Part shown: piece after piece, positions 30,345 to 45,580 of the stretch | How the letters are laid out: each line of letters opens with the position of its first letter | Position numbering within the stretch: position 1 is the first letter of the stretch | Made by a program: the position numbers and the translations under genes | Assembly: GCF_904830955.1 (NCBI RefSeq) | Contig: NZ_LR882970.1 | DNA length: 64,000 nucleotides | Strand: one strand, 5' to 3' | From: Planktothrix tepida | GTDB taxonomy: Bacteria > Cyanobacteriota > Cyanobacteriia > Cyanobacteriales > Microcoleaceae | The notes under the pieces: generated by a model | Databases searched by the model: none | What the model saw: the letters and a program-made list of their open reading frames with translations, nothing else | What the model was told of the DNA's origin: nothing

Positions 30345-30348
30345 CCTT

Positions 30349-30382
30349 AGAAACCCGGTTTCTTTTAGAAACCGGGTTTCTG
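30349..30382. terminator. 33-bp near-perfect palindrome AGAAACCCGGTTTCT-TTT-AGAAACCGGGTTTCT between dnaK and dnaJ-like gene
   Basis: 15-bp stem, 3-nt loop possible; same 15-mer as at 16791/16825. Confidence 0.5.
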
Positions 30383-30420
30383 ACCACTTAATTATGAACT
30401 CGTTAACCTAAATTTAACCT

Positions 30421-31413
30421 ATGCAAAATTTTCGGAATTATTATCAAATTTTAGGGGTTTCGCGCGAAGCATCTGTTGATGAAATTAAGAAAGTGTATCG
30501 CAGACTAGCCAGACAATATCACCCGGACTTAAATCCTGGGGATAAGGAAGCAGAAGAAAAATTTAAAGATATTGGAGAAGCTTATAATATTTTATCTGAT
30601 CCTGAAAAACGATTAGAATATGATAATTATAGTCAATTTTGGAAACAAAAAGGGTTTCAAGATTGGCAAAAAAATGCGTTTTCAGGAATTAAAAACTGGG
30701 GAAGTCGTCGGACAATTTCTCAAACTGAAGATGTAGATTATGGAGATTATTCTGATTTTGATACCTTCATTGATCAATTATTAGGACGGCGGCGGGAAGT
30801 GCGAACCGTTGACCCGAAAAACTCCCCTCAAATGACCTCCACTGACCCCTATGATTCTCCTCGAACAAAAGCAGTTTATAAACCCACTCCCCGCGAAACA
30901 AAACGGGATATTGAGGCGCGATTAACCTTACCGTTAGAAAAAGCTTATACCGGAGGAACAGAACGCATCCGTTTAGAAGATGGACGGTCTTTAGAAGTGG
31001 ATTTACCCCCAGGAATGGTGAAGGGTCAACAAATCCGTTTGAGAAATCAAGGAATTAATGGGGGAGACTTATTTTTAAAAATTAATATTACTCCCCATCC
31101 CTTTTTTAGAATAGAAAAATCAGAAATTTATTGTCAAATTCCTGTCACTCCCACAGAAGCAGTATTAGGGGGAGAAATTGATGTTCCTACGTTAGATGGT
31201 TTGGTTAAAATGCGTTTACCTGCGGGGGTGGTATCGGGTCAACGGTTACGATTAGCCAATAAAGGTTATCCGAACATTGAAGGAGAACGGGGCGATCAAT
31301 TAATTGAAATTCAAGTGGTTATTCCTAAAAATATTACTCCTGAAGAACGAGAATTATATGAAAAATTACGTCAAATTGAAACCTTTAAACCCCGTCAAAA
31401 TTTAAAAATATAA
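30421..31413 (+). CDS. DnaJ-family co-chaperone, type II (J domain + C-terminal substrate-binding domains, no Zn-finger)
   Basis: YYQILGV...HPD J-domain; DnaJ_C-like beta domains; in operon with dnaK paralog. Confidence 0.85.
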
Positions 31414-33828: not shown

Positions 33829-35151
33829 TTAGGTTGGGGGTTGGGTTAAACGTCGATAAACCGTTGCTAAACCATCGGAGTCTCCCACATTTCCAGGGAA
33901 TAAAACAACGGGTAAATTGGGGTATAAAGGATGGTTAGAAGAGGTTTTCACCATTGAACAACCTGCTAACACTTGACCGAGTAACCGTGCTGTTTTTAAC
34001 GCTAATCCTTTACTTAAAACATCATTAGAAGTAATCCCACCTTTACTAATTAAAAATCCAATATCTTTCGGTAAACCTCGAACAATATCCATGAGTAAAT
34101 CAGAGACTTTAATTCCAAAGGCTAACCGAGTTTCTACCGTGTCAAATTGTAATTCTTGACGACTGGTATAAATGACTGGGGTTTGACCCGCTTCATGAAT
34201 AGCCTTGATTTGGTCTAAAATTTGCTGTAAGAGTTCCTGTCTTTGAGTCTCACTTTCTTCTAATAAATGGGAAACATCCACTTCAATCCCCACAACTCCA
34301 GGTTCTTGTAATAATCGTTCTAATTGTTGAGTTGATTTTTTAACATGAGAACCCATAATCACTACACCCGGTTTTCCATTTCGGGTATATTTTGCCATTT
34401 CTTCTGCGGGAATGGGTTGATTTCCCAATGCAGCTAAAGACGTTAAAATACTCGCCGCGCTGCGGAATAAAAAGCGTTTTCCTTGACTAGCGGCGGTAAT
34501 AATATCCGAGGCGAATTGATCAAAATCGGCTTGAGTTTCACCATCGACAACCACACATTGATTGTCTGTTAAACGCATTAACCGAGGTAAGGTTCCTACC
34601 CGAATATCGGATAAAGAAAATCGTTCTACTTTTTCCGATGGAATCAAACCTTTGGTTTTTTCGGTGACATAATCGGGTAAATAACTATGTTGATAAGCAA
34701 AGACCGAATCCTTAGCAAATTCCGTTAAATGAACGGGGGTTTCTACACCATCAACGATTAAATAATGAATACTATTGCGGGTAATTCTTCCCCCTTCAAA
34801 AAACGCAGGAACTAGAAAATGAGCATCAAAGGGGCCAAGTTCCTCGGCGATAACATCGGTTTCGACAGGATAGTGACCCCGGAGAGTTGAATCAGAACGA
34901 CTCACCACCATAAAATCCGTAATGGATTCGGCGGCGAGGGCTAATTTTAAATTTTGGGTGACTTCACGGGTAACAGAAGCGGCTTGTTCGGGTGTTAAAG
35001 CTCTAGTATTGGTGAGAATAAAGGAAATCGGAGATTGGTCAGCCAGTCCAATTCGCAGAGTATCCACATCCCACTGAGTCAGCAATAAGCAACTATGAAC
35101 GGTTTGAGAACCTGTGGGGTCATCATCGAGAACAATAATTTTAGGTCGCAT
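33829..35151 (-). CDS. four-carbon acid sugar kinase family protein (OtnK/DUF1537-DUF4392)
   Basis: IVLDDDPTGSQ N-terminal motif and C-terminal SKGGITS; start at Met MRPKIIVLDDD (35151) preferred over 35259. Confidence 0.7.
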   Translation of the reverse strand: MRPKIIVLDDDPTGSQTVHSCLLLTQWDVDTLRIGLADQSPISFILTNTRALTPEQAASVTREVTQNLKLALAAESITDFMVVSRSDSTLRGHYPVETDVIAEELGPFDAHFLVPAFFEGGRITRNSIHYLIVDGVETPVHLTEFAKDSVFAYQHSYLPDYVTEKTKGLIPSEKVERFSLSDIRVGTLPRLMRLTDNQCVVVDGETQADFDQFASDIITAASQGKRFLFRSAASILTSLAALGNQPIPAEEMAKYTRNGKPGVVIMGSHVKKSTQQLERLLQEPGVVGIEVDVSHLLEESETQRQELLQQILDQIKAIHEAGQTPVIYTSRQELQFDTVETRLAFGIKVSDLLMDIVRGLPKDIGFLISKGGITSNDVLSKGLALKTARLLGQVLAGCSMVKTSSNHPLYPNLPVVLFPGNVGDSDGLATVYRRLTQPPT

Positions 35152-35418
35152 TGGAGTTCCCATCAAAATTGTGTTGAGGTTATTGGAGGATTTTTTGGAT
35201 ATTAAGAAAAGCCTACCATTGTTGACATCCTCTCCGCCGTGAACGGACAGAGATTCCATCTATTTAAGTTACAAAAATTGACAACTGCTTAAATTTTGGC
35301 GGGTTGACGCTTCTTTGGGTGCTGCTATCTTGAGATAGTCTTACGTTTCCTCCACGTCCGTTTAGAGTCTCCGTGCATCCCGCCGGCGACAGTTCCAGAT
35401 TACTTTGGTATCACCCTA

Positions 35419-36141
35419 TTAATATTGTTCAACTCCTGGGGGAGTAAAGCGAATTTCGATACGTCTTCTTGTTTCATCAGAAGCACGATTTTGCGACGCA
35501 TATTGTCCTGAAGGTAAAAATAATTGTGCGGCTGAATAAGCTCTAAATTTTAACCCCTTTAAACGACCTTGTTCTTGAATAGCTTGGAGTTTTTTAACAA
35601 CTGCTAAAGAGCGCATTAATCCTAAATCAGCATTGGAACCGGGTTTGAGATTTTTAACAGGTTGGTTCCCCTGTGCAACTTGTTCTAAGATTTGATCTAA
35701 ATTACTAGCAGGATTAAAGGTTTCTTGACCATCAGTATGTCCAATTACATCCACTACATAACCTTGATAAACTTTAGAAAATTCCTCTAATTTTTCCACC
35801 ACATTCCCTTCAATAAAAATTCGCAACCCTTCCGGTAAATCTGCCTTACCTGTCTCAAATTTTAAAGATCGCCCCTGTGCATCTCGATCAGAATCTTTAA
35901 TCACAATGACTGGTGGAGCTTTTAATCGTTCAATTTCGTTTTTTAATGAACCAACTGTTAATTCTAAGCCTTTAATTTTCTGATCTTTTTCTTTTGAATT
36001 AGAAGTTAATAACGATGATTTAACAATGGCTAACAATAAAAACAAGCTCATAATTAAAAAAGCATTAGACATTAAATCTGTAAATGCTTGCCAGACATTC
36101 AAATCTTCCGATGAATTTTTAATTTGAGTCGGACGACGCAT
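35419..36141 (-). CDS. MotB/OmpA-family protein (N-terminal TM with conserved Asp, C-terminal peptidoglycan-binding OmpA-like domain); ZorB-like
   Basis: WQAFTDLMSNAFLIMSLFLLL MotB plug/TM motif; C-terminal GHTD...RRRIEIRF OmpA_C signature. Confidence 0.8.
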   Translation of the reverse strand: MRRPTQIKNSSEDLNVWQAFTDLMSNAFLIMSLFLLLAIVKSSLLTSNSKEKDQKIKGLELTVGSLKNEIERLKAPPVIVIKDSDRDAQGRSLKFETGKADLPEGLRIFIEGNVVEKLEEFSKVYQGYVVDVIGHTDGQETFNPASNLDQILEQVAQGNQPVKNLKPGSNADLGLMRSLAVVKKLQAIQEQGRLKGLKFRAYSAAQLFLPSGQYASQNRASDETRRRIEIRFTPPGVEQY

Positions 36142-36275
36142 AATTTTAAACCTTTAATAATAATAATTACAAAACTTACCAACTTGTACCCAAGAAACCG
36201 GGTAACTAATATGAAAACCTGAACTCAGGATCAATCTCCTGATCTAGCCGAGAATCTCCAGCATCAGTCCTAAAT

Positions 36276-37847
36276 TTATTTACTTTCCCAAAATTTTGGT
36301 TTATTTTTCTTAATTCCCGGATTACCGCTTTGTTCTTTTAAGAGTTTAAGTACCTGAGATAAATCAGATTTCATCTCAATAATATACTTAATATTAGGTT
36401 TAATTGCTGCTTCTAATTTATCCGCTAAGACTTGTGAATAGGACTGACTACTATTTGTTTGTTCTTTAATGAGCTTATTCATCATTTTACTTAAAGATTC
36501 TAGTTCAAAATTCACTGTATTTGTATAACTATTAAGGGTTTTAACTAAGGTTTCTAATTGTTTATGAATACCTTCTAAATGATCGGATTTATCAATAAGT
36601 TTGTTTTGGATATTCTCTAACGTTTGAGAACTTAACTCCAAGCTTTTTCCTCCTTGTTGCAGTTGAGGAATAATTTCAACTAGGGATTGTTGATTAATTT
36701 GATTTAACTCTAAAACTTGTAAGGAACTTTGATTAAGTTCACTTAATTTTGTTTCCGTTTTTAATAACTGCTCTGTAAAGATCTGAAGTTGATTTAATAT
36801 TGTTTCCAAAGATTTAACCGTTTGAAATAAACCGAATGCTGAGTCAGAAAAATTCTTTTGATTCTCTCCAAAATCAGTAGCGATTATTGATAATTGTTTA
36901 GGAAATTCACTTTGTTCAAAACCTTGAGCAACTTGTTCTAATTTATCAGCCGTTGTGTTACTCACTTGTACCGCATTTGTAAAACTTTCTGTGGCGGTTT
37001 GAAACTCTCTAGCTCCCCTTTCTAACGTTCCTGTAGCATTGGATAATTGACTATAGACTTTTAGAGCTAATTCACTCGCTTCTACATTCGCTTTTGTAAT
37101 TTGATGAATATTATCTCTCATGGCAGATTCCACCGCATCTCTAACAGTAATACCAAATCGATCTAAAAAATCTTTAAATTCACTCGACATTCCTTTAACA
37201 ACTTTATCCAACCGAGTTTGACCATTTAAGGATGAATAATAAATATTATCGAGGTAATGTTCTAAAGAAACCGTTAAACGATATTTCGCTAGACTCGTAT
37301 TCCATAAAAAGTTTAAAACAGTTAATAATGCACTACACAATAACCCAGCTAAACTGGTAATAAAAGCGATCGCCATTCCTTCTAGGGGTTGTTTTAATTC
37401 CTCTACTAACTGACTAACATCCGTTGCTTGACTTTGACTAATAGTTTGACTCAAAGAACCCAAATTGACCGTAATTCCAATAAAGGTTCCAATTAATCCA
37501 AAAGCCAGGAGTAAATTCGGAATAATTCGACACCAATATTCAATTTGTTCGCAGGATTTCCCTAAAACCTTTTCTTGGCTGTAGGCTTGATCAATCAAAG
37601 CCGCCGTGTTCACTTGTTCTAAATTTTGGCTGGATTCTGCAAAACTCTGTTCTAAAACTTGTACAATCGCAGGCGGGAGTTCAAGCTCCCGTTTATTGAT
37701 AATCTGATAAATTTTATTCGCTTGAGTGGTTAAATGTTGATAAAGATTCCAGCGATAATAGAGGGTAATGATCGAGGGAATAAACACAAATATCCCGATC
37801 AAAATGATTAACAAAGGCGGTAAAGGAGGAAAAGAAGGAAACAACAT
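36276..37847 (-). CDS. MotA/TolQ/ExbB proton-channel family protein with ~330-aa C-terminal coiled-coil tail; ZorA-like
   Basis: AFGLIGTFIGI and MAIAFITSLAGLLCSALLTVLNF match MotA/ExbB TM2-TM3 signatures; residues ~200-523 heptad-rich Q/E/L/K. Confidence 0.75.
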   Translation of the reverse strand: MLFPSFPPLPPLLIILIGIFVFIPSIITLYYRWNLYQHLTTQANKIYQIINKRELELPPAIVQVLEQSFAESSQNLEQVNTAALIDQAYSQEKVLGKSCEQIEYWCRIIPNLLLAFGLIGTFIGITVNLGSLSQTISQSQATDVSQLVEELKQPLEGMAIAFITSLAGLLCSALLTVLNFLWNTSLAKYRLTVSLEHYLDNIYYSSLNGQTRLDKVVKGMSSEFKDFLDRFGITVRDAVESAMRDNIHQITKANVEASELALKVYSQLSNATGTLERGAREFQTATESFTNAVQVSNTTADKLEQVAQGFEQSEFPKQLSIIATDFGENQKNFSDSAFGLFQTVKSLETILNQLQIFTEQLLKTETKLSELNQSSLQVLELNQINQQSLVEIIPQLQQGGKSLELSSQTLENIQNKLIDKSDHLEGIHKQLETLVKTLNSYTNTVNFELESLSKMMNKLIKEQTNSSQSYSQVLADKLEAAIKPNIKYIIEMKSDLSQVLKLLKEQSGNPGIKKNKPKFWESK

Positions 37848-37909
37848 AAAATATCCTCAAGATTGAACATGAGCTTAGATTCAAATCAATGTAACTAAAT
37901 TAAAATGAG

Positions 37910-40900
37910 TTAACAACCATATTTCCGTAGAATTTCTTCTTTCTCAAATTCATATCCTTTTTGAGTAATGAACCCCTGATCTAATTTTTGTTTTAGCTGC
38001 CTTAATTTTGCCTCTAAACTGTCATCACTTTGGTTAAAATCTCTGGAATTTTCTCCACGCTTTACTAAAGCGGCAGAATCGTCATTAACCGATGTTGGTA
38101 AACTTCCAGTCTTAGTTAGACTTTCCTGAATTTTTCGACGAAAACGATTAATAACTCCTTCATGTCCTAAATTATTAATTGTACCCGGAGTCCCCACAAC
38201 CGTTGATTTATAAAGATAATTAGGATTAGATTCAGGTAAATTATCCACATAATCCACAAATTGCTGTAATCTGGGTAAATATTGACTTTTCCAGAGATCA
38301 GGATTTTGACGAATCTGATTAATTTCCTCCTCTAATAACTCGTTTAACGTTTTCGTCATTTCTCGGTGATTCGCTAGTTCTTCTAACGCTTGATTCCAAA
38401 TTGGGTTCAGTTCTGCTGTATAATAATAGTCTCGTAAATTATCGTAATATTGAAACTCTAAGCCTTGATTTTTAGGATTTTTAACAATTAACTGAAATGC
38501 TAAACAAGGATAGAAAACATCTTCCAATTCTTCCATGAGTCTAGCATCTGGGGGGATAATATCAGTAAAGGGGATCTGATAATCAGAATGACAAGTTGAG
38601 CCATCTTTATTTTGTTCTCGGATATAATGATTTCTGATTTCTTCTAAACCATTAATCAACCGTAAAGGAAACCCACCATATTCCCGAACAATTAAAATTT
38701 GATCTTCAGCTTGAGTCGGTTTTAAAGCCGTTGGGTCGATTCCCAAATCACGAGTCAGAGTCATTTTAAACTGATTTACTTCTACCTCATCGGTATCTTT
38801 AAATCCAATAAATTCTTTTCGTTTATCCGAAAGATTAGAAAAATAAGGATCACTCACATTTAAACGTAATAAAGGTTCTGCCTGCTCAATAATTTGTCCT
38901 AAACGGGTAGGACGAATTGACCCAGAATATTTTTGAATAAAACGCTTAATCACAGATTTAACAATTTGGTTACTCCGAGAACCAAATTCACCATCTATTT
39001 TTTGATCAATTTCTGTTTTCAGTTGCTCTCCAGTGGTACGATTAATTAAATAGCAGATCGATTCTCCTACCCCAGATGCCTCTGTAATATCTTTACTCAC
39101 TAACACCAATGCAGAGCGAAACTCTAAATCAGGTAATAAGGTTTGATAACATTCTTCAATATCTTCTTGAGCAAAAATAGCTTCTCCACTCATTTCATTA
39201 AAATTAGAATTTATCAGATCATTTTGTTCTTTCTCATAATTCGTTTTTAAATTTTCGATCATCCGGCTAAAGGTGGCAACTTCAGTCGAACAATCTCTAA
39301 CATACTTTTGCAAATCATTGACGATTTTTAATGTTTCTTGAGTTACTGCTAATTTGAAATTATGCTGAATTAACTGCATAATACTTTGAACAACGTTTCT
39401 CGCTAATCTCTGAATATCGGCATTTTTACGATTCAGTATGGGGAGTTCAATTCTTTGCTCTATCTCATCCATGTTCTGTTCTAAATCTCGCAATTTTTTC
39501 TCTAAGTCTTCATTTTTTTTCATTCCTTCCCCTTGACTAATTTCTTCCTCTAACTGACGTTGATAGGTGTTTAATTCTGTTTGCATCGCCTCTAACCAAT
39601 CACGAACACTTTTAGTCGAAAATTTGGGATTGCTAGGGGTCATTAATTCCTCAATAAATTCATTAATATGATTTTTCAATTGTTGAGCGATGAGCGGTTG
39701 TACCTGCATTAACCGAGTTAACCAAATTCCTCTTGTTGTTTCCGTTTCTCCCGGCAGAACTTTTCTGAACTGTTCTCGTAATTCTCGTAATAAGTTGTTT
39801 TTTAAACTGAGCCGATCTTCACTATTTCTACACTCATTAATTTTTTGAATTAATTTCTCTCTGAATTTAGTTAAGGTCGTAGAAAAGTTTTTGCTCCCTT
39901 CTTGAACGCCTCCAGCAAGTCGTTCTTTAAACCCATCCCGTTGGATTAAATCGCTATACCAATTATATTTAATCAAAAATTGTTCAATAATTAATTGAGG
40001 ATCGGGACTTTGACCTTCTCCATTTAACCAAAAATTAACCAATTTTAAACTAATTCGATTTAAGGCAATTTTTACGATAATTTCACGAGGAAAATAAATC
40101 GCAGCCAAGCCAAAGGTTAAATATCCTTGAGTATTAGGACGGGGATGATTATCCGATTGAATTAAATGGTTTAGTAAATTATCCCGCATTCCTTTAGCAA
40201 CAGGGGCTAATTCTCCGATAAAATCTAACGCGATTTTATGGGCAATTACATTACATAATTTTTGTTGTTCTAAGATTGTATATTCACCGTTCGTTTCATT
40301 AGAAATTAAATAAGTATAATCAAATGGGGCGCGAGGTTCCTGAACAATTACCAAATTTTGCATATCATAACAAGCTTCAAATCGAGTCCCCGCACTGCTA
40401 TAATAATTGAGTTCTTTTAAGGCTGCATAAGTATTAGCATTCATATAGGACGCATTGCTGTATAACTGTGGACTTACCACTAAATATCCGAGTAATTGCG
40501 TGCCTTTATCTCCATAGGATTTCCTTAAACTATAAGCAACATCTAAAAACATTCCGCTTCCTGTACCGCCACAGAGGGAACCAATCACAAAAATATTTAA
40601 TCCGGGTTCAAGTTTTAATCTGGCTTTCAGTAAGGTTGCTTCATGACCCATTGTCCGTTTTGCTGCGGTTTCAATGACAGTTTTGATCTTTTGATAATTA
40701 TGAAAAAACGCTAATCTTCCCACAGGTCGAATTCCTTTTGCTCCTTCTTCAACGGCTCTAATATTACGAAGTAATTGAGGCGGAAACCAGCGAGAAATAT
40801 GATCAAACGGCCCAGAACGATTGGATTTAGAACGCTGTTCTACACCTCGCACAAAATTGGTTACTTCTGCGGAAGTTAAAATGGCATTTACTTTTTCAGA

Positions 40901-41137
40901 ATCTCGAAAACTTAAATCAACACCCCGATAGGTATTACCTGTTTTTAAACTGGCGGACTGAGTGGCAGTTTTATCTGTGTCAATATGAACAAAACTAACA
41001 ATTGGTAGTTCTGTTAAATCTCCATATTTTTCTACAATTAACCGCCGAATTCGCATTAAAACATCTCGTCCTGTTCCTCCTAATCCGATACAAATTGTGC
41101 GTTGAACTCCTTGCAGTTGATAATCATTAGCTTGCAT
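37910..41137 (-). CDS. 1075-aa tubulin/FtsZ-superfamily-like GTPase domain protein (Tubulin_2-like) with long helical C-terminal region and SHOCT-like C-terminus
   Basis: GLGGTG (T1-like) at aa 18-23 and GSLCGGTGSG (tubulin signature [SAG]GGTG[SA]G-like T4) at aa ~188-197; C-terminal LEAKLRQLKQKLDQGFITQKGYEFEKEEILRKY resembles SHOCT. Confidence 0.6.
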   Translation of the reverse strand: MQANDYQLQGVQRTICIGLGGTGRDVLMRIRRLIVEKYGDLTELPIVSFVHIDTDKTATQSASLKTGNTYRGVDLSFRDSEKVNAILTSAEVTNFVRGVEQRSKSNRSGPFDHISRWFPPQLLRNIRAVEEGAKGIRPVGRLAFFHNYQKIKTVIETAAKRTMGHEATLLKARLKLEPGLNIFVIGSLCGGTGSGMFLDVAYSLRKSYGDKGTQLLGYLVVSPQLYSNASYMNANTYAALKELNYYSSAGTRFEACYDMQNLVIVQEPRAPFDYTYLISNETNGEYTILEQQKLCNVIAHKIALDFIGELAPVAKGMRDNLLNHLIQSDNHPRPNTQGYLTFGLAAIYFPREIIVKIALNRISLKLVNFWLNGEGQSPDPQLIIEQFLIKYNWYSDLIQRDGFKERLAGGVQEGSKNFSTTLTKFREKLIQKINECRNSEDRLSLKNNLLRELREQFRKVLPGETETTRGIWLTRLMQVQPLIAQQLKNHINEFIEELMTPSNPKFSTKSVRDWLEAMQTELNTYQRQLEEEISQGEGMKKNEDLEKKLRDLEQNMDEIEQRIELPILNRKNADIQRLARNVVQSIMQLIQHNFKLAVTQETLKIVNDLQKYVRDCSTEVATFSRMIENLKTNYEKEQNDLINSNFNEMSGEAIFAQEDIEECYQTLLPDLEFRSALVLVSKDITEASGVGESICYLINRTTGEQLKTEIDQKIDGEFGSRSNQIVKSVIKRFIQKYSGSIRPTRLGQIIEQAEPLLRLNVSDPYFSNLSDKRKEFIGFKDTDEVEVNQFKMTLTRDLGIDPTALKPTQAEDQILIVREYGGFPLRLINGLEEIRNHYIREQNKDGSTCHSDYQIPFTDIIPPDARLMEELEDVFYPCLAFQLIVKNPKNQGLEFQYYDNLRDYYYTAELNPIWNQALEELANHREMTKTLNELLEEEINQIRQNPDLWKSQYLPRLQQFVDYVDNLPESNPNYLYKSTVVGTPGTINNLGHEGVINRFRRKIQESLTKTGSLPTSVNDDSAALVKRGENSRDFNQSDDSLEAKLRQLKQKLDQGFITQKGYEFEKEEILRKYGC

Positions 41138-41158
41138 GATAAATCCCTTTTGGTTAGT

Positions 41159-42307
41159 TTATTTTTGAATTTTAATGGTTAATCTGTAGTTTTTGGGAGG
41201 TTTAGGATTAGGGCAATTAAAATTTATCCTACTTCTGGTTATTTGGATTTTTTGATCGACAATTTTGTCTTGATATTCAATCCGGCTATTGTTCGTCGGT
41301 TCTAAATAAAGTTTTTCTCCTTTTCTGACTAAATAAGCCCGAACTTCTGCTCCAGGTAAATCAATGGTATCCTGACAACCAGATTCATATTCACCAATGG
41401 CAATTCTTTGATGATTACCGAGAGAGCAGGTTTGATCTGCTACCTGATCATCATCATCAAAATTAACCATCAGTTTCCATTTTTTATTCAAACGATAAAT
41501 TTTAATTCCCATCCCGACACTAGCAAGAATTAAAATTCCTAAAATTAATCCGGGTAGCCATAACTGTTTCCATAAATAAGGAGAAACTAAACAAGTTTCT
41601 TTCTGTCCGGGGGTAGGAGTACAGAACTCTTGAACATTCGGAGGAATATCAACAATTGTTAGGTTATATTGTCGCTGTTCTTGAGTTTTAATCGGAAGCG
41701 ATCGCTGATTTAAAGGTAATTGATTTAACCACTCTTGGCGCTGTTGTGTTTCTGGAGAAGTTGCTATTCGGAAAGGACTGTCTGCTGGGGTTTCCGTCCA
41801 TTCTTCAGAGGTAGCAGGGGATTTTGTAAATAACGGTGCATCGGTAATCCAAACAATCGATTGCGGTTTAATCGGTTGATTCTGGGTTAAACGACATTGA
41901 TTGAGATCTGCTAAACCCTGATAAATCGTTAACTCAGCTTTTTGAATATCGGTATTTTGTAATCTCAGGTCAGGCTGAAAGGTAATTAATTGTAAAATCT
42001 TTTCTACATCGGCTTTCCCTTTAAACTGAATTGCAGTTTCTAAAGTTAAAGGGTTGATCTCAGGTGTTGAAGGGTTAGTTTTTGTAGCAAAAGGCACAAC
42101 ATAAACGGTGTCTCCTGATTTTAAGCTATCTTCAACAATTTGACGTAAACGCAAATGACCTTCATCATTCAAACCGACGCTTTCCGTTAGGTCAATCGCC
42201 AGTACCACATCCCGTCCGCCATGTAGACGAGTGACTGATTCCAAACCGATTTTCTGGAAAGGCGTCAACGGTTGACCTGGTGCGACTGGGGTACAAATCT
42301 CACTCAA
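41159..42307 (-). CDS. vWA-domain protein with single TM helix and C-terminal FHA-like domain
   Basis: VVLAIDLTESVG MIDAS-like DxTxS; TM LWLPGLILGILILASVGMGI; C-terminal GAEVRAYLVRKGEKLYLEP...NNSRIEY FHA-like. Confidence 0.55.
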   Translation of the reverse strand: MSEICTPVAPGQPLTPFQKIGLESVTRLHGGRDVVLAIDLTESVGLNDEGHLRLRQIVEDSLKSGDTVYVVPFATKTNPSTPEINPLTLETAIQFKGKADVEKILQLITFQPDLRLQNTDIQKAELTIYQGLADLNQCRLTQNQPIKPQSIVWITDAPLFTKSPATSEEWTETPADSPFRIATSPETQQRQEWLNQLPLNQRSLPIKTQEQRQYNLTIVDIPPNVQEFCTPTPGQKETCLVSPYLWKQLWLPGLILGILILASVGMGIKIYRLNKKWKLMVNFDDDDQVADQTCSLGNHQRIAIGEYESGCQDTIDLPGAEVRAYLVRKGEKLYLEPTNNSRIEYQDKIVDQKIQITRSRINFNCPNPKPPKNYRLTIKIQK

Positions 42308-42559
42308 GATAGTTTACTTAGAAACTTATACAGTTCCTTATCATATCGTAAAACCAGGTTATCCAGAAGGGGTTGGGGTGAAACTTTTTTTACCCGTTTA
42401 TTGGACAAGGGTTGACAATAAGTCGCCAGAATAGTGATTAATATAAGCTATTCAGTCTCTAATGGTGATGGGGAAATTGCCAATTCCTTGTAGTTGGAGC
42501 GTCCCCGCTCCCTAGAATATACACTTTAAATGTAATAGCAGCTTAGATTGATTTTTTTC

Positions 42560-43252
42560 CTATTCCTTGTTTCTGATTGTCTGTTGCTTGCGATTAGGGG
42601 AAATCTGTTGTTCCTGAAGTTGTTTTAATTGTTGATGAACGTCTGAAGCAATTTCAAAGGCTTGATACAGGAGTCTTCCTTGTTCTGTTGTGGGTTTTTC
42701 TGTTTGTAAGACCGTTAAGGCGGTGAAATTTGGATCAAAAAGTTCGGAATATTGCTGAATAAATTTTTGATGTTTTTTCAAGGTTCGTTCTATTTTTAAT
42801 CCTTTAATTAATTCTGTTCTAATTAAGTTTAAAGCTGCAATAATAGCTTCTCGATTGTTTAATTTTCCAGGGGGATGGGCTATTGCATCGAGTTGATCAT
42901 AAATTTTTAAGGCTTTAACAATGGCGTTATAACGCTCCACTTGATGACACAGTTTAACGAATTGGGGACGGGTTAAGGTATTCCACAGTTTTACACTATC
43001 CTCAAGAATTAATAGTCCCCCAATGGTTAAATAAATTATGATTAAAATTAAAGAGAGTTCTGGAAAAATTAAACTCCAAATCCAATAACTCATTAATAAT
43101 AATAAAAAGATAAAAAAGGTTTTTAAACCTTCCCCTAATAATTTTTTAACGGTAGCTGGTCGGTAGAGTAACTTCTGATTAATACCACTCCAATGTTTGA
43201 TTTCCCCTGGTGTAATTTCTAATCCTTCTAAATCAGATTGTGTGTTACCCAT
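42560..43252 (-). CDS. hypothetical 2-TM membrane protein (N-terminus MGNTQS)
   Basis: two adjacent TM helices then ~150-aa soluble helical domain. Confidence 0.55.
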   Translation of the reverse strand: MGNTQSDLEGLEITPGEIKHWSGINQKLLYRPATVKKLLGEGLKTFFIFLLLLMSYWIWSLIFPELSLILIIIYLTIGGLLILEDSVKLWNTLTRPQFVKLCHQVERYNAIVKALKIYDQLDAIAHPPGKLNNREAIIAALNLIRTELIKGLKIERTLKKHQKFIQQYSELFDPNFTALTVLQTEKPTTEQGRLLYQAFEIASDVHQQLKQLQEQQISPNRKQQTIRNKE

Positions 43253-43373
43253 TGAAGATCTCCATCCCGTAGAAGTAGCTTTGGGTTGGTTTTAGGTGCT
43301 GATTCAAAACTGAACTCAAACCTGCCTCTACAGAAATTAAAAGGTGTTTAAGGGGATAAAATTTATTCTCCTT

Positions 43374-44012
43374 TCAAGAGGGCGCATCGGCAATATATTT
43401 GTCATACCCTCCAGCTTTCTTGATCTCATCAGGAATCAGTTTTTGGATGTCATTTTCGGTGCGGAGGGCTTTTTGATACGCCCATTCAGGACAAGCCGGA
43501 AGGGATTTTTTACTTTCACTATACACAGAATTTATCTGAACTAAATCATTCAGTTCTTCCTCGATGGGTCGGGGTTCTAAACGACATTTGAGTAAAAATG
43601 AATCATATTGATCGGCCATTTGTTCATAAACCCTGGAGGCGACTAAATGGGTATTCGCTTTACCATTGGGATCTAAAAAGGTTAATAACGGTGCAAGAAT
43701 AGCGACTAAAACGGGAATAATCACCGCCACTAATTGATAATTTCCGCCTAAACTGGAGATGGCTTGCACACCAGCAACAGCCGCTAAAACGGTGCTGGGA
43801 ATGCCAATATAAAGATGAGTTCTTGTCCAGCGAATGGAAACATAAATATGAGCTTGGCTTAAAACCCGACAGACGGTTTTGCGATCAAAAGCACGATAAA
43901 TGATATCTTCCTGGGCAACATAAGAAAGTGGTTTACCTGAATTTTCTTCTAAAGGAACAGAGGAACTCACGGGGTTATTAATCAGATTATCAGGGTTACT
44001 GGATGCACTCAT
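43374..44012 (-). CDS. hypothetical 2-TM membrane protein (SLATT/DUF4231-like topology?)
   Basis: TM pair LYIGIPSTVLAAVAGV / LVAVIIPVLVAILAPLLTFL then soluble C-terminus. Confidence 0.5.
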   Translation of the reverse strand: MSASSNPDNLINNPVSSSVPLEENSGKPLSYVAQEDIIYRAFDRKTVCRVLSQAHIYVSIRWTRTHLYIGIPSTVLAAVAGVQAISSLGGNYQLVAVIIPVLVAILAPLLTFLDPNGKANTHLVASRVYEQMADQYDSFLLKCRLEPRPIEEELNDLVQINSVYSESKKSLPACPEWAYQKALRTENDIQKLIPDEIKKAGGYDKYIADAPS

Positions 44013-44134
44013 AGGCTTTAAACCGGGTACAATAAAGGTGTAAAAAATGAATCTTCAGACCAGTTTGTTGGGACTCCTAAGCTTAATATTGGCTTGGGGA
44101 TGGAGACAACATCAGTTGAGAAAAAATAATTCTA

Positions 44135-45580
44135 TCAACTTCTGTTCAATTCTTGATCAGGAGTAACACCCTTTAACCAAACGATAAATGTAGTTCCTCT
44201 AGGAATATTCCCCCGAGAAAGCATCTCCTTGGAGACCCAAACCGAATTAACAGGAGAGAACACTTCAATCTTTCCCTGCATTTGTTCGACTAAGGTTTTT
44301 GCGATCGCTAACCCTAACCCTGTCCCCGGAATTTCTGAACTTTCTTGGACACCCCGATAGTGACGTTCAAATAAATGGGTTAAATCTTCTGGGGGAATAC
44401 CAGGGCCAGTATCACTAATGCCAATTCCCACTTGCAGGGGTTGGGATTTCCGTTTTGTAGTGAATCGAACTCGAAGACAAACTTTTCCCCCGGATGGCGT
44501 ATATTTTAAGGCATTATCGAGCAGATTACTCAAGACTTCTCGTAAAGCTTTACGATTCCCTAGGATAACGGGTAATTGGGGGGGAAGGTCAACAAGACAT
44601 TGAAGTTGTCGTTCTTCAGCGATAGCTTGGGTTGATAAAATTAACGGTTGCAAGACCTCGGACAATTCTAGGGGTTCGAGTTCATCCCAGGCGGGTAACA
44701 AGGTTAACACCGAGGGCGGAAAAGTCGCTTCTTCCCCAGGAGGAGTGGAAACCAAGACAGAATCAACGGTTAGGGGTAAGCTCAAATCAGGTTCTGTGTA
44801 GTCTAAAGTTTGATCAGCTTGTTGTAACAACTCTTGAATGCGATCGCTCTCTCGTAGAATACTATTGGCAATCGGATAATTTTTATCGTCCGGTAACAAC
44901 CGCTTTAATAATAATTTTCCAAAGGTACGCACCGCCGTGAGGGGACTTTTGAGTTGATGAAAGATATTATGAAGGGCATCGGCTTGTTGCGCCTGTAGGT
45001 GTTGTTGTCGGCTTAATTGTTGTTGGAACCATTGGGAGCGTTGATCTAAAATACAACCCAGGGCTAAGGTATGGGCAATTCCTTGCAATTGGCCATATTC
45101 CTCTGGGTTCCAGGAACGATCATTGCGTCCCGTTACTAAAAAGCCTAAGACCACCTCTTCTTGAATTAAAGGTAACACCGTTTGACTGCGTTGTTGCCAA
45201 CTTTCCTCTTCTTCTAGGGGTTGCTCTCCCTGTGCTTCGGCTTCTATAAAATCATTGATATCCACCGCAGGTAACAAAATCCAGGTTTTGGTAATTTCTT
45301 CTGTTGTTAACAAACGAGGTAGAGTTGAAGTTAACAGGGTCGGAAAGCGCATCAAACCCGGAATATCCAAATCTTCCAGGGAGGTTTCAGGATAAGTGGC
45401 GATCGGAATTAATTTCTGATGTTCCTCATCCACCCAAGCCTCAGCCAAATACACCACACTCAAGGACGCACCTAAACTCGCCGTCAATGACAATTGCGTG
45501 CGACAGAGTTGGACAAATTCAGAACTAGCTGTAAGCATAGGAGGAGGAGCCGGGGGATCAGTGTACTGATTTTGTATCAA
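44135..45580 (-). CDS. sensor histidine kinase, soluble, N-terminal GAF-like domain + HisKA + HATPase_c (Hik2/CSK-like)
   Basis: H-box HNIFHQLKSPLTAV, N/G1/G2 boxes LSNLLDNALKY...GTGLGLAIAKTLV. Confidence 0.85.
   Translation of the reverse strand: MIQNQYTDPPAPPPMLTASSEFVQLCRTQLSLTASLGASLSVVYLAEAWVDEEHQKLIPIATYPETSLEDLDIPGLMRFPTLLTSTLPRLLTTEEITKTWILLPAVDINDFIEAEAQGEQPLEEEESWQQRSQTVLPLIQEEVVLGFLVTGRNDRSWNPEEYGQLQGIAHTLALGCILDQRSQWFQQQLSRQQHLQAQQADALHNIFHQLKSPLTAVRTFGKLLLKRLLPDDKNYPIANSILRESDRIQELLQQADQTLDYTEPDLSLPLTVDSVLVSTPPGEEATFPPSVLTLLPAWDELEPLELSEVLQPLILSTQAIAEERQLQCLVDLPPQLPVILGNRKALREVLSNLLDNALKYTPSGGKVCLRVRFTTKRKSQPLQVGIGISDTGPGIPPEDLTHLFERHYRGVQESSEIPGTGLGLAIAKTLVEQMQGKIEVFSPVNSVWVSKEMLSRGNIPRGTTFIVWLKGVTPDQELNRS

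Follow-up and report, generated by a model that had tools for sequence, protein, structure and literature searches.

A conserved cyanobacterial operon encoding a vWA-FHA protein, a tubulin-like GTPase and a membrane pair remotely akin to ZorAB

Four co-oriented genes of Planktothrix tepida form a real and strongly conserved cyanobacterial operon, which encodes a vWA-FHA protein, the tubulin-like GTPase FtsZl1 and two membrane proteins (the A and B subunits) resembling ZorA and ZorB of the Zorya system. We tentatively read it as a cyanobacterial form of the FtsZl1-vWA system in which a ZorAB-type membrane pair would signal to the GTPase, and we regard this reading as possible rather than probable. 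The operon occupies positions 35419 to 42307 of the window, the 64,000-nt stretch of contig NZ_LR882970.1 that was analyzed. Our results support part of a first-pass annotation of this DNA: its domain assignments, the kinship with ZorAB and the linkage of the genes stand, whereas its statement that the operon could not be placed in any known system does not, because the identical operon appears in Makarova & Koonin 2010 (PMC2875224).

Conservation and genomic context of the operon

All four genes lie on the minus strand. Gene 1 (41159..42307), with a TTG start that agrees with the N-termini of its homologues, encodes a 382-aa bitopic membrane protein; gene 2 (37910..41137) a 1075-aa FtsZl1/Tubulin_2 protein (Pfam PF13809); gene 3 (36276..37847) a 523-aa ZorA-like subunit of the MotA/ExbB superfamily; and gene 4 (35419..36141) a 240-aa ZorB/MotB-like subunit (COG1360). 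They are the orthologues of Ava_1847, Ava_1848, Ava_1849 (family B7) and Ava_1850, respectively. The ORF listing gives intergenic gaps of 21, 62 and 134 nt, and the layout is as first annotated. The window proteins share 47-60% identity with their Anabaena/Nostocales orthologues, with values of 47-57% against Ava_1849 (P0191) and Ava_1847 (P0272), and 47% for gene 3 against Ava_1849.

The order vWA, FtsZl1, ZorA-like, ZorB-like on a single strand is kept in approximately 63-66 of 80 cyanobacterial species-level loci, where the gaps have medians of 17, 74 and 49 nt, and the loci lacking the full order are mostly on truncated contigs. The flanking genes vary while the four-gene unit stays constant. 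Seen from the other side, FtsZl1 lies upstream of 37 of 52 ZorA-like genes; the related ZorAB-like pairs stand alone in 15 of the 52 cases, among housekeeping genes such as those for PhoH, FtsJ and a PBP transpeptidase. This linkage, which the annotation had left to a comparison of gene neighbourhoods, is far beyond chance. The conserved order and strand, the short gaps, the differing flanks, the frequent position of FtsZl1 upstream of the ZorA-like gene and a similar pair in Deinococcus (see below) together show, at the level of sequence or predicted structure, that the four genes are passed on together as a unit.

Relatives were found in 503 species-level genomes, by estimate a minority of the cyanobacterial phylum. 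Identity to the window protein falls from 75-97% in Planktothrix-type sequences to ~61-65% in other Oscillatoriales, 53-60% in Nostocales and ~49-56% in Pleurocapsales/Chroococcales; two P. agardhii/rubescens-type versions, each 75% identical, were recorded on 107 and 124 contigs. FtsZl1 shows 49-92% identity, in contrast to 32-49% for the ZorA-like subunit, which is the fastest-evolving; in the homologue search, FtsZl1 relatives across cyanobacteria were 54-91% identical. A neighbour-joining (NJ) tree of the ZorA-like subunit groups largely by taxon, some Nostocales loci share a fixed position of the operon, downstream of psbO and of a gene for a sigma factor, and its neighbours in the window are ordinary chromosomal genes (DnaK, DnaJ and CCB1). 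It also occurs in unicellular taxa, for example Microcystaceae and Halothece, and the family was not found among IMG/VR viral contigs. The distribution thus looks vertical and core-like, in ordinary chromosomal contexts. Distant FtsZl1-vWA loci were found on megaplasmids, adjoining BrxL/RecQ or caspase/OmpA/PEGA genes.

Domain architecture of the four proteins

Domain analysis bore out all four assignments of the first-pass annotation (vWA, tubulin/FtsZ, MotA/ExbB with a helical tail, and MotB/OmpA). By its sequence or predicted structure, the gene 1 product is a membrane-anchored protein that combines a vWA domain (~aa 30-225; 41633..42220, minus strand), whose MIDAS-like motif D39-x-T41-x-S43 ... 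T119 ... D156 is intact, with an apparently non-canonical FHA-fold domain (aa 277-382; 41162..41479, minus strand). A hydropathy scan placed a single TM helix between them (aa 250-268; 41504..41560, minus strand), with two K/R in the 15 residues before it and five after it. By this bias only, the FHA domain is predicted to lie in the cytoplasm. The same scan detected no N-terminal signal peptide that would export the vWA domain.

The gene 2 product matches Pfam PF13809 with E=3.2e-109, and the tubulin/FtsZ fold on which the first-pass reading had been staked beforehand is present. The core (~aa 9-372; 40022..41113, minus strand) carries a T1-like GLGGTGRD and the G-box CGGTGSG. In the AF2 model (pLDDT 76.4) the tubulin/FtsZ fold is complete with both its domains, the GTP-binding loops are intact, and long helices follow. 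In this model the C-terminal two-thirds (37913..40021, minus strand) comprise a long helical region (~aa 380-760) with one helix of 74 residues, an alpha/beta domain (~770-1010), and then a disordered linker and a short SHOCT-like C-terminal helix pair; PF09851 is present in the precomputed Pfam annotation of some homologues. The architecture agrees with the description of FtsZl1 in PMC2875224. A DMAP_binding match (Pfam) was weak, our search assigned no fold to the alpha/beta domain, and the T7 catalytic residue was sought in FtsZl1 and not identified.

The gene 3 product has three TM helices with an N-out/C-in charge bias (hydropathy scan). Topology scan and alignment define a membrane core (aa 1-183; 37299..37847, minus strand) of TM1, a conserved cytoplasmic loop, TM2 and TM3. 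By composition and profile alignment, the remainder (aa 184-523; 36279..37298, minus strand) is a helical, coiled-coil-like cytoplasmic tail of ~340 aa with 5 Pro and 13 Gly in 339 aa, in agreement with the ~330-aa coiled-coil tail first annotated. Its length differs between orthologues, partly via duplicated units. The protein matched PADLOC ZorA1 (E=1.4e-12, 45 bits), and the top solved structures for its family profile were ZorA chains (8VVN_C, E=1.9e-8; 8QYD_A, E=1.1e-5). Profile positions 102-495 align along the tail to 144-535 of 8VVN_C. The profile also matches designed coiled coils, MCPs and SMC; the non-coiled-coil matches among the 60 listed were all ZorA, and MotA, ExbB and TolQ chains were not among these 60. 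The Pfam MotA_ExbB model gave E=0.0027 and 17.9 against a gathering threshold of 22.9, and the NCBIfam models ZorA_1 and ZorA_2 gave 30.9 bits (cut-off 100) and 23.4 (cut-off 190). In the orthologue alignment the invariant columns of TM2 and TM3 are P110-N111, G117, G120-T121-F122 and S165. Given that EcZorA Thr147 and Ser184 contact ZorB Asp26, we take T121 (TM2 GTF) and S165 (TM3 TSL), assigned by motif, as their putative counterparts.

The gene 4 product matched PADLOC ZorB1 (E=5.1e-9), and its top solved structure was Shewanella ZorB (8VVN_B, E=1.9e-5), with PomB next. Its TM helix (36007..36099, minus strand) contains the motif F20-T21-D22-(L)-M24-S25-(N)-A27-F28, invariant in a 24-orthologue alignment, and D22 is the predicted proton-carrying Asp, corresponding to the essential ZorB Asp26 and MotB Asp32. 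The OmpA-like peptidoglycan-binding domain (~aa 77-235; 35437..35913, minus strand) has an invariant GHTD and N170-x-x-L173-x-x-x-R177, with the same spacing as the peptidoglycan-binding residues N152, L155 and R159 of EcZorB. The linker between helix and domain spans aa 46-76 here and ranges from ~0 to 90 aa among orthologues, and the B subunit has no cysteines; EcZorB has two disulfides and lacks a linker. Judged from sequence or predicted structure, the A and B subunits together appear to hold the residues that define ion-driven 5:2 motors.

Relationship to Zorya and possible function

The ZorA matches listed, the sub-threshold MotA_ExbB score and the lack of a TonB/TolA partner support a placement of the A/B pair nearer to ZorAB than to MotAB, ExbBD or TolQR. 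A ZorAB-type identity is further suggested by the PADLOC and structure matches for both subunits, by the invariant D22, T121, S165 and NxxLxxxR, which match residues that proved essential in E. coli Zorya, and by the N-out three-TM topology with the tail inside. The ZorAB-like stator proposed at annotation is upheld, with ZorA/ZorB of Shewanella and E. coli as the best solved-structure matches; the MotA-like protein does not group with ExbB/TolQ, a grouping that would have told against the proposal. The two proteins nevertheless appear to be only remote relatives of ZorAB. As had been annotated, the partner genes are not ZorC/D/E/F/G: PADLOC gave no match to these in the four nearest flanking ORFs, gave weak matches for ZorA1 and ZorB1, and has no model that matches FtsZl1 or the vWA protein. 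We can practically dismiss membership in Zorya type I, II or III. The weak PADLOC matches and the best-matching structures speak for it, but the type-specific genes are missing among those flanking ORFs, the NCBIfam scores are far under their cut-offs, the disulfides and linker-less architecture specific to ZorB are absent, and the operon lies outside any defence island. The suggestion of an undescribed Zorya-like defence variant is unproven and meets counter-evidence, being weakened by the lack of ZorC-G, the sub-threshold ZorA scores, the vertical inheritance, the ordinary context and the lone A/B pairs.

The signalling reading that we tentatively favour would work as follows. An A5B2 complex, anchored to the cell wall and driven by the proton gradient, would have its rotation freed or altered by a change in the envelope, such as a phage breach or other damage. 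The ~50-nm tail could carry this signal into the cytoplasm in a Zorya-like manner, and may recruit or activate the FtsZl1 GTPase rather than nucleases. The vWA-FHA protein would keep FtsZl1 at the membrane, where GTP-dependent assembly might locally reinforce, seal or remodel the membrane. We lean slightly towards such a triggered response to envelope breach or invaders over a constitutive housekeeping role, given the distant megaplasmid loci beside BrxL/RecQ or caspase/OmpA/PEGA genes, the classification of tubulin, vWA and GTPase systems as conflict systems (Kaur, Burroughs, Iyer & Aravind 2020), and the fast evolution and variable tail length of the ZorA-like subunit. The signalling reading as a whole is weakened by the remote ZorAB kinship, the cysteine-free B subunit and its variable linker, as well as by the absence of an effector (no nuclease or other obvious toxic effector was found in the operon), the silence of PADLOC on FtsZl1 and vWA, the vertical core-like spread, the lone A/B pairs and the absence in IMG/VR. 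The T7 result in FtsZl1 and the conflicting topology cues of the gene 1 product also count against it.

We consider it very improbable that A and B form a conventional stator for motility (of the MotAB/PomAB or the gliding AglRQS kind) or an ExbBD/TolQR energiser whose only tie to the tubulin-like gene is proximity. The weak MotA_ExbB match, the rank of PomB structures second to ZorB and the orphan A/B pairs would fit this explanation, but the match is under its threshold, and the A subunit, with its three TM helices and 340-aa tail, departs from the four-TM layout of MotA. The B subunit is OmpA-like rather than of ExbD/TolR fold, and the domain search and window context revealed no TonB, TolA or flagellar gene near the operon. 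Moreover, cyanobacteria to our knowledge have no flagella, unicellular taxa also carry the operon, and the FtsZl1 linkage is kept in ~65 species and recurs in Deinococcus.

A weightier alternative, which we hold to be possible if somewhat doubtful, is a constitutive envelope or membrane-remodelling machine, analogous to Tol-Pal or a divisome/septal accessory. Here a peptidoglycan-anchored, PMF-driven A/B motor and a membrane-tethered tubulin-like polymer would cooperate while cells grow normally, for instance to constrict the envelope, organise membranes or thylakoids or form vesicles; apart from the added motor, this matches in essence the proposal of Makarova & Koonin 2010. The wide conservation with identity that follows taxonomy, the taxon-wise NJ tree, the fixed place after psbO in some Nostocales, the ordinary window context, the orphan pairs beside genes such as that for the PBP transpeptidase, the lack of a toxic effector domain and of PADLOC matches for FtsZl1/vWA, and the absence from viral contigs all agree with it. 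However, many cyanobacteria lack the system, and PCC 7120 holds only the other FtsZl1 type (PMC2875224 table). The same table lists paralogous FtsZl1 systems with differing partners, and this partner modularity points to an accessory-like character. In addition, distant relatives are plasmid-borne beside defence-type genes, and among relatives of the A/B pair, function has been characterised for Zorya defence proteins only. It is also conceivable, though improbable, that FtsZl1-vWA is a conflict module of the Kaur et al. 2020 type in which A/B is not a sensor but an anchor or pore effector causing abortive infection by proton leak. Their tubulin, vWA and GAP1-N2 systems and OmpA-type effector domains are suggestive, an unplugged 5:2 channel could dissipate the PMF, and the variable B-subunit linker could serve as a plug. 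However, no GAP1-type P-loop GTPase gene was found in or beside the operon, a pure pore would hardly account for a long conserved tail of variable length, and the Zorya precedent is one of tail signalling and direct rather than abortive defence.

Comparison with known systems

With Zorya, in which signals pass through the tail, the operon shares a three-TM A subunit that extends into a long helical tail in the cytoplasm and a B subunit that combines a TM Asp with an OmpA-like, NxxLxxxR-bearing peptidoglycan-binding domain. The TM2/TM3 motifs keep Thr/Ser residues like those in the polar ring of ZorA, and the modular logic of a motor with variable soluble partners is shared. However, the tail is ~340 aa here against ~500 in Zorya, the two disulfides are missing from the B subunit, whose linker is variable, and in place of DNA-binding or nuclease proteins the pair is accompanied by a tubulin-like GTPase and a vWA-FHA protein. 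The homology is remote (45 bits in PADLOC, NCBIfam sub-threshold), and the present operon is vertically conserved and outside defence islands. Dynamin-like GTPases (Eleos/LeoBC and B. subtilis DynA), which act in phage defence or membrane repair, have a dynamin rather than a tubulin/FtsZ fold; we claim no homology with them, and the LeoBC models of PADLOC gave no significant match to the operon proteins.

A precedent exists (PMC12204202, Mol Biol Evol 2025) in which the gene for a membrane-tethered vWA protein accompanies those for a TolQR-like 5:2 PMF motor, with which the protein is predicted to act. There, however, the vWA domain lies in the periplasm, carried by a TonB/TolA-like or TolR-like anchor, and its motors are of the TolQ type, whereas the gene 1 product has no signal peptide, carries its FHA fold at the C-terminus and is encoded next to a cytoplasmic tubulin-like protein. 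The systems of Kaur et al. 2020 likewise pair a tubulin-family protein fused to coiled-coil/helical regions with membrane-associated vWA proteins, use peptidoglycan-associating effector domains such as OmpA, and are enriched in multicellular bacteria. They differ in occurring in Firmicutes and Actinobacteria and in centring on a P-loop GTPase that is missing here, and a MotA/ZorA-type component is not described ('MotA' occurs 0 times).

The Deinococcus cluster of FtsZl1, MotA/TolQ/ExbB and OmpA in the PMC2875224 table (DR_0534-0540; Deide_2p00760-00810) is similar in that the genes directly after FtsZl1 encode a MotA/ExbB-superfamily protein with a helical tail (411 aa) and a member of the OmpA family. 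Its A- and B-like proteins gave weak ZorA and ZorB matches in PADLOC, and its TM2-TM3 core matched the cyanobacterial family with an hhalign probability of 94%. However, two small hypothetical genes replace the upstream vWA gene, LRR-type, Ser/Thr kinase and beta-helix genes are added, the D. deserti cluster is plasmid-borne, and FtsZl1 is ~25% identical to the window protein.

The closest precedent is the operon in Additional file 5 of PMC2875224: Ava_1847 (vWA), Ava_1848 (FtsZl1), Ava_1849 ('B7') and Ava_1850 (COG1360), with equivalents in Cyanothece 8802 (Cyan8802_4287-4290) and Microcystis (MAE_58760-58800). Order and families are identical, with lengths of 381/1085/524/215 aa against 382/1075/523/240 aa in the window, and the window operon is the same FtsZl1-vWA-B7-COG1360 system. 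The difference lies in interpretation only. B7 was an unassigned family, termed 'membrane-associated protein', the OmpA-like partner was treated as of beta-barrel or porin type, and the tubulin C-terminal (activation) domain and the FHA domain were undetectable in 2010. We interpret B7 and COG1360 as a ZorAB-like stator; our model of the tubulin core shows both domains of the fold in full, and an FHA fold is present in the vWA protein. Our literature search found no paper linking Zorya/ZorA with FtsZl1 or tubulin-like proteins, and the recognition of B7 as ZorA-like appears to be new.

Operon structure and gene linkage

The operon consists of four consecutive open reading frames on the minus strand of the window: a vWA-TM-FHA gene (41159-42307; 382 aa, TTG start), the FtsZl1/Tubulin_2 gene (37910-41137; 1075 aa), a ZorA-like gene (36276-37847; 523 aa) and a ZorB/MotB-like gene (35419-36141; 240 aa). 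They are separated by 21, 62 and 134 nt, exactly the spacing reported in the first-pass annotation, which had been made from the sequence without database searches. The G+C content of the operon (0.33-0.37, compared with ~0.38 for the window) shows a slight dip that is not striking. The closest homologues are proteins of Planktothrix sp. MAGs (91-97% identity), and those of P. agardhii, P. rubescens and P. serta are 75-77% identical. A promoter and terminator scan of positions 35000-44300 found fewer sites than in shuffled sequence and was uninformative on co-transcription.

We scanned one genome per species for FtsZl1 and found that 503 species encode a relative; the best 80 loci were then examined. 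All 80 are cyanobacterial, and they come from Oscillatoriales, Nostocales, Pleurocapsales, Chroococcales, Trichodesmium and Halothece. In tblastn comparisons with the window proteins, the vWA, FtsZl1, ZorA-like and ZorB-like genes occur in the same order and on the same strand at 66 of these best 80 loci. The median gaps over the four-gene loci are 17, 74 and 49 nt. Where the full order is missing, the contig in most cases ends within or beside the operon, and the true exceptions are few: FtsZl1 stands alone at L075, the vWA gene is missing at L072, the pair of ZorA-like and ZorB-like genes (the A/B pair) is displaced at L044, and the B gene lies elsewhere at L062. Conservation of the cyanobacterial operon tracks taxonomy, with synteny kept in Nostocales.

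We also performed the reverse search with the ZorA-like protein against metagenomes, which returned 80 loci. The ZorB-like gene follows directly at 60 of the 61 loci with room for it, and FtsZl1 lies upstream at 37 of 52. At the other 15 of these 52 (L112, L114, L115, L116, L120, L126, L137, L140, L144, L145, L155, L156, L160, L161 and L162), the A/B pair occurs without vWA and FtsZl1 genes; these orphan pairs share no common neighbour and lie amid genes for PhoH, FtsJ, a PBP transpeptidase, shikimate dehydrogenase and similar proteins. Their A subunits are mostly shorter, at 347-515 aa apart from outliers of 596 and 790 aa. In a neighbour-joining tree of the ZorA-like family, some of the orphans group in a basal clade, others in a clade that falls within the linked genes, and the rest are singletons. 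Neither the FtsZl1 nor the ZorA-like family was found on IMG/VR viral contigs.

Genomic surroundings

The neighbours of the operon in the window provide a housekeeping context (DnaK, DnaJ, a methyltransferase, CCB1, PadR and VanY), with the DnaK/DnaJ genes on the plus strand at 28317-31413, 4-7 kb downstream of the operon. The gene that directly follows the ZorB-like gene encodes a four-carbon acid sugar kinase-like protein (SBD_N/NBD_C; 33829-35259, minus strand). Two Nostoc loci (L026 and L076) also carry a homologue of this kinase-like gene, ~5 kb upstream of their operon, which is probably a coincidence.

On the upstream side are a 230-aa protein with two TM helices and no family matches (42560-43252, minus strand), a SLATT-domain gene (43374-44012, minus strand; E=1.8e-20 with the PADLOC CBASS-type '2TM effector' model, and 94 bits with NCBIfam SLATT_4, whose cut-off is 55) and, beyond it, a GAF histidine kinase gene (44135-45580). 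We considered the SLATT and two-TM genes as a fifth component and rejected them, since they stand beside the operon at no other locus than that of a Planktothrix MAG (L001); together with the histidine kinase gene they might form a small conflict module of their own. Because all of the flanking genes in the window (the histidine kinase, SLATT, two-TM and sugar kinase-like genes) accompany the operon only in this closest MAG, we regard the unit as comprising four genes.

A different environment is shared by about 13-16 Nostocales loci (including L011, L012, L017, L019, L024, L029, L030, L037, L039, L055, L064 and L077; for example, L017:7356-8452 and L017:15792-18362). The common block contains psbO, a sigma-70 factor, a ~300-aa gene, an 81-aa gene, the operon and a ~830-aa gene, the last of which is co-directional and begins ~170 nt downstream of the operon. 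The ~300-, 81- and ~830-aa genes gave no Pfam or PADLOC match and a single NCBIfam match that was far below threshold. They might be lineage-specific extra components.

The ZorA-like and ZorB-like proteins

The 523-aa protein has three TM helices, a charge pattern indicating an N-out/C-in orientation, and a tail of ~340 aa that is poor in Pro and Gly. It matches the PADLOC ZorA1 model (E=1.4e-12) with residues 95-415 on model positions 99-418. With a profile of 22 ZorA-like sequences, the best solved structure is Shewanella ZorA (8VVN_C; E=1.9e-8), which aligns over both core and tail, and E. coli ZorA (8QYD_A) is also matched (E=1.1e-5). The other matches are generic coiled coils, and MotA, ExbB and TolQ are absent among the 60 matches listed. 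Two further models score below their cut-offs on this protein, namely Pfam MotA_ExbB (PF01618; 17.9 bits against 22.9) and the NCBIfam ZorA families (antiphage_ZorA_2, 30.9 bits against 100; ZorA_1, 23.4 against 190). With 131 clusters at E<=1e-30 among 1.84 billion representatives, the ZorA-like family is small, and its distant members reach at most ~66 bits on the PADLOC ZorA models. Invariant residues include P110-N111, G117, G120-T121-F122 and S165, among them a Thr in TM2 and a Ser in TM3. In E. coli, ZorA T147 and S184 contact ZorB Asp26, and we take T121 and S165 as their putative counterparts.

The 240-aa protein carries the invariant TM motif F-T-D22-L-M-S-N-A-F, and its OmpA-like domain contains the invariant motifs GHTD and N170-x-x-L173-x-x-x-R177. 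The peptidoglycan-binding residues of E. coli ZorB are N152, L155 and R159, which have the identical NxxLxxxR spacing. Among solved structures, the ZorB-like profile matches Shewanella ZorB best (8VVN_B; E=1.9e-5), and PomB comes next; 8VVN is a type I ZorAB (PMC11890865).

Both subunits vary in length. The ZorA-like proteins range from 481 to 678 aa, and up to 733 aa, owing to a highly variable tail (for example, proteins P0168, P0128, P0139 and P0206 and loci L073, L074 and L079). Part of this variation is apparently due to a unit that includes 'NQTS(I/L)QVLELHQxNQxSLxEIIPQLxQGAxS' and has been duplicated in tandem. The function of Zorya depends critically on the length of the tail. The ZorB-like linker between the TM helix and the peptidoglycan-binding domain (alignment columns ~48-125; aa 46-76 in the window protein) measures from 0 to ~90 aa among orthologues; it is nearly nil in many Nostocales and Pleurocapsales, and consists of ~90 coiled-coil-like residues at L002, L044 and L045. 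The lengths of the ZorA-like and ZorB-like proteins correlate at rho=-0.32 (p=0.009) and those of the ZorA-like protein and FtsZl1 at rho=0.07, and we dropped length co-variation as evidence because it is too weak and is confounded by phylogeny. In Microcystis aeruginosa NIES-843, two consecutive genes of the 'B7' family (the 2010 name for the ZorA-like protein), MAE_58780 (523 aa) and MAE_58790 (417 aa), are followed by an OmpA-like gene (PMC2875224, Additional file 5), which suggests that the A subunit has been duplicated in some lineages.

FtsZl1 and the vWA-FHA protein

The 1075-aa protein belongs to Pfam Tubulin_2 (PF13809; E=3.2e-109, residues 15-367). Its GLGGTGRD motif (18-25) and G-box CGGTGSG (189-195) are invariant in 53 orthologue sequences, so that the T1/T4 GTP-binding signature is present. 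Sequence searches with FtsZl1 detected no solved structure. When its profile was aligned by hhalign with an approximate E. coli FtsZ sequence, only the T3-T4/G-box region was matched, with a probability of 6%, and the T7 loop, the site of the catalytic acidic residue, fell outside the match. In the analysis of Makarova and Koonin (2010; PMC2875224), FtsZl1 ranked with the branches of the tubulin/FtsZ superfamily that diverge most, T6-H7 could likewise not be aligned and the activation domain was not detectable by sequence. The top 50 Foldseek matches of the AF2 model (pLDDT 76.4) are tubulins and BtubB throughout, as the tubulin-like assignment in the first-pass annotation would predict. Given that the aligned lengths are 280-330 residues, the model includes an activation domain as well as the GTPase domain, and the core is thus predicted to be a complete two-domain tubulin/FtsZ fold with GTPase domain, core helix and activation domain.

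In the same model, the tubulin core (aa 9-372) is followed by ~380 residues of long helices (aa 380-760), including one helix of 74 residues, by an alpha/beta domain (aa ~770-1010), and finally by a disordered linker that leads to a short SHOCT-like end. The latter is a helical pair (window 37913-38020; aa ~1038-1075) with a weak DMAP_binding match; some orthologues are annotated with PF09851, which we take to be the SHOCT domain. The pair could be a docking peptide for the MIDAS site of the vWA protein or for the ZorA-like tail.

A vWA (COG2304) gene lies directly upstream of FtsZl1 in the window, which is the arrangement that characterizes FtsZl1-vWA systems. Its 382-aa product gave no Pfam, NCBIfam or PADLOC match, and its profile matched no PDB sequence; a Pfam scan of all 37 members of the family gave VWA_2 at E=0.08 as the best match and none to FHA. 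The MIDAS-like residues D39xT41xS43...T119...D156 are invariant or nearly so, and the C-terminal domain has an FHA beta-sandwich fold. At the positions expected to bind phosphothreonine (Gly-Arg, Ser-x-x-His and Asn), the sequence reads I-G-E and (V/I)-R-A-Y when the sequence alignment is read by eye, in an approximate register; by inspection, the canonical binding residues are apparently not conserved. A single TM helix (aa 250-268) separates the two domains, with two K/R residues before it and five after it, a charge bias that puts the FHA domain inside. At odds with this bias, no signal peptide for export of the vWA domain was found.

Distant relatives of FtsZl1

We also searched plasmids by tblastn with the tubulin core and obtained 14 records. 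On D. deserti plasmid 2, FtsZl1 is followed by a 411-aa protein and then by an OmpA-family protein. The 411-aa protein aligns to the TM2-TM3 core of the cyanobacterial ZorA-like proteins (hhalign probability 94%), and the two partners give weak PADLOC matches to ZorA (E=1.6e-7) and ZorB (E=8.7e-6). On the Thermus oshimai plasmid pTHEOS01 (L082), the vWA and FtsZl1 genes overlap, and they and a hypothetical gene adjoin genes for BrxL, a 3'-5' exonuclease, RecQ and a TROVE protein. On plasmid p2 of Azospirillum sp. TSA2s (L083), the tubulin-like gene lies amid two caspase-family, several OmpA-family, PEGA and DUF4384 genes. The wider FtsZl1 family thus often lies in accessory, conflict-like surroundings, whereas the cyanobacterial clade does not. 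The vWA and FtsZl1 genes are adjacent in most FtsZl1 systems. This pair is the ancient core of the system, and the A/B pair is a module that cyanobacteria and Deinococcus added to it in their own lineages and that is also able to live alone.

Possible mechanism and role

Beyond the identity of the domains, every step of the mechanism that we propose is inferred. By analogy with E. coli Zorya, the A and B subunits would form a 5:2 proton-driven complex anchored to peptidoglycan. The pentameric A tail, which would extend ~50 nm if its 340 residues formed one continuous helix, would carry a signal into the cytoplasm and there, by the same analogy, might engage the vWA-FHA tether and cytoplasmic FtsZl1, which would then, as the output, assemble at the membrane in a GTP-dependent manner.

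What such assembly would serve can be read in two ways. We lean, tentatively and with somewhat less than even confidence, towards a triggered response to a breach of the envelope, whether by phage or by damage. The affinity of the A/B pair to Zorya, the conflict-type contexts of the distant FtsZl1 relatives, a tail that evolves fast and varies in length, and the modularity of the partners all point in this direction. On the other hand, inheritance of the operon is vertical and core-like, its genomic contexts are ordinary, the orphan A/B pairs lie amid housekeeping genes, and there is no effector toxin, no nuclease, protease or pore-forming toxin domain being evident in the operon proteins. These observations favour a constitutive role in the envelope or in membrane remodelling, which we regard as possible, if on the whole doubtful.

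The operon might represent a new class, in which a ZorAB-type, wall-anchored, proton-driven sensor motor controls a polymerising tubulin-like GTPase tethered by the vWA-FHA protein, instead of a nuclease, with cytoskeletal or membrane remodelling as the output. This Zorya-like class for envelope surveillance would be widespread in cyanobacteria and have a counterpart in Deinococcus. We consider this reading rather unlikely. If it is true, the FtsZl1 branch would be given its first function within the tubulin/FtsZ superfamily. The ZorAB-like partners turn a 15-year-old guess at membrane remodelling into a specific model of motor, tail, GTPase and tether. The operon also suggests that ZorAB-type motors serve beyond nuclease-based phage defence, and it bears on the recruitment of 5:2 motors for signalling.

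Comparison with known systems

The first-pass annotation could not place the operon in any known system, and this part of its interpretation does not stand. Makarova and Koonin (PMC2875224) defined FtsZl1 by an N-terminal FtsZ-like GTPase domain, an extended coiled-coil and a mostly helical C-terminal region, and proposed that its operons with vWA, GTPase, kinase and OmpA-family genes are a putative membrane-remodelling system. Their Additional file 5 lists, in Anabaena variabilis, Ava_1847 (vWA, 381 aa), Ava_1848 (FtsZl1, 1085 aa), Ava_1849 ('B7', 524 aa, 'membrane-associated protein') and Ava_1850 (COG1360/OmpA-like), with the same arrangement in Cyanothece PCC 8802 and Microcystis NIES-843. 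Ava_1849 (P0191 in our protein set) is 47% and Ava_1847 (P0272) 57% identical to its window counterpart. The window therefore holds a further orthologue of a catalogued operon, which is a member of the FtsZl1-vWA(-B7-COG1360) family, and novelty is limited accordingly, as the gene cluster was catalogued before and its kind described computationally. Absent from the 2010 paper, which treats OmpA-like proteins as beta-barrel or porin types, are the assignment of B7 to the MotA/ZorA type, the pairing of B7 with COG1360 as a stator-like unit, the FHA end and the complete tubulin core. We did not find the reinterpretation of B7 and COG1360 in print: searches for Zorya or ZorA together with tubulin, FtsZl1, Tubulin_2, vWA, MotA or the locus tags returned only the 2010 paper and unrelated reviews, many subscription journals being outside the search. 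No experimental study of any orthologue (including Ava_1848/1849, MAE_58770/80 and DR_0536-0538) was found in the literature searched.

Membership of MotAB/PomAB and of ExbBD/TolQR was considered and rejected. MotAB/PomAB does not fit, given the sub-threshold PF01618 match, the three TM helices as opposed to the four of MotA with its large cytoplasmic domain between TM2 and TM3, and the lack of flagellar genes, none of which occur among the ORFs scanned (~28-51 kb of the window). ExbBD/TolQR, which the first-pass annotation had named as the affiliation that would undo its proposal, is not supported either: the B subunit has a peptidoglycan-binding domain of OmpA type as opposed to the ExbD/TolR type, and the neighbouring genes encode no TonB or TolA domain. 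The Firmicute and Actinobacterial clusters of tubulin, vWA and GAP1-N2 GTPase genes that were recast as conflict systems by Kaur et al. (2020) have no MotA-type component, and their core GAP1-N2-type P-loop GTPase is absent from the operon and its flanks.

A further comparison is with Zorya itself. The three TM helices and long C-terminal cytoplasmic tail of ZorA are present in the 523-aa protein, and the TM Asp (here the invariant D22) and peptidoglycan-binding OmpA-like domain of ZorB are present in the 240-aa protein, so that the ZorAB-like reading of the first-pass annotation stands together with its tubulin fold. However, we rejected membership of Zorya types I-III. The type-specific components (ZorC and ZorD, ZorE, or ZorF and ZorG) gave no PADLOC match in the four operon genes and four scanned neighbours, in line with the earlier remark that the partners differ; the NCBIfam ZorA scores are below cut-off; and in ZorB no linker separates the peptidoglycan-binding domain from the TM helix and two disulfides are present, whereas the 240-aa protein has no cysteines and belongs to a family with linkers of 0-90 aa. 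Sporadic distribution and a defence-island context are typical of defence systems without strictly defining them, whereas the operon tracks taxonomy and lies in a housekeeping context in the window, and the defence role suggested in the first-pass annotation is not demonstrated. These differences make it less probable that the operon is a Zorya system, but they do not make it less probable that its A/B unit works like ZorAB.
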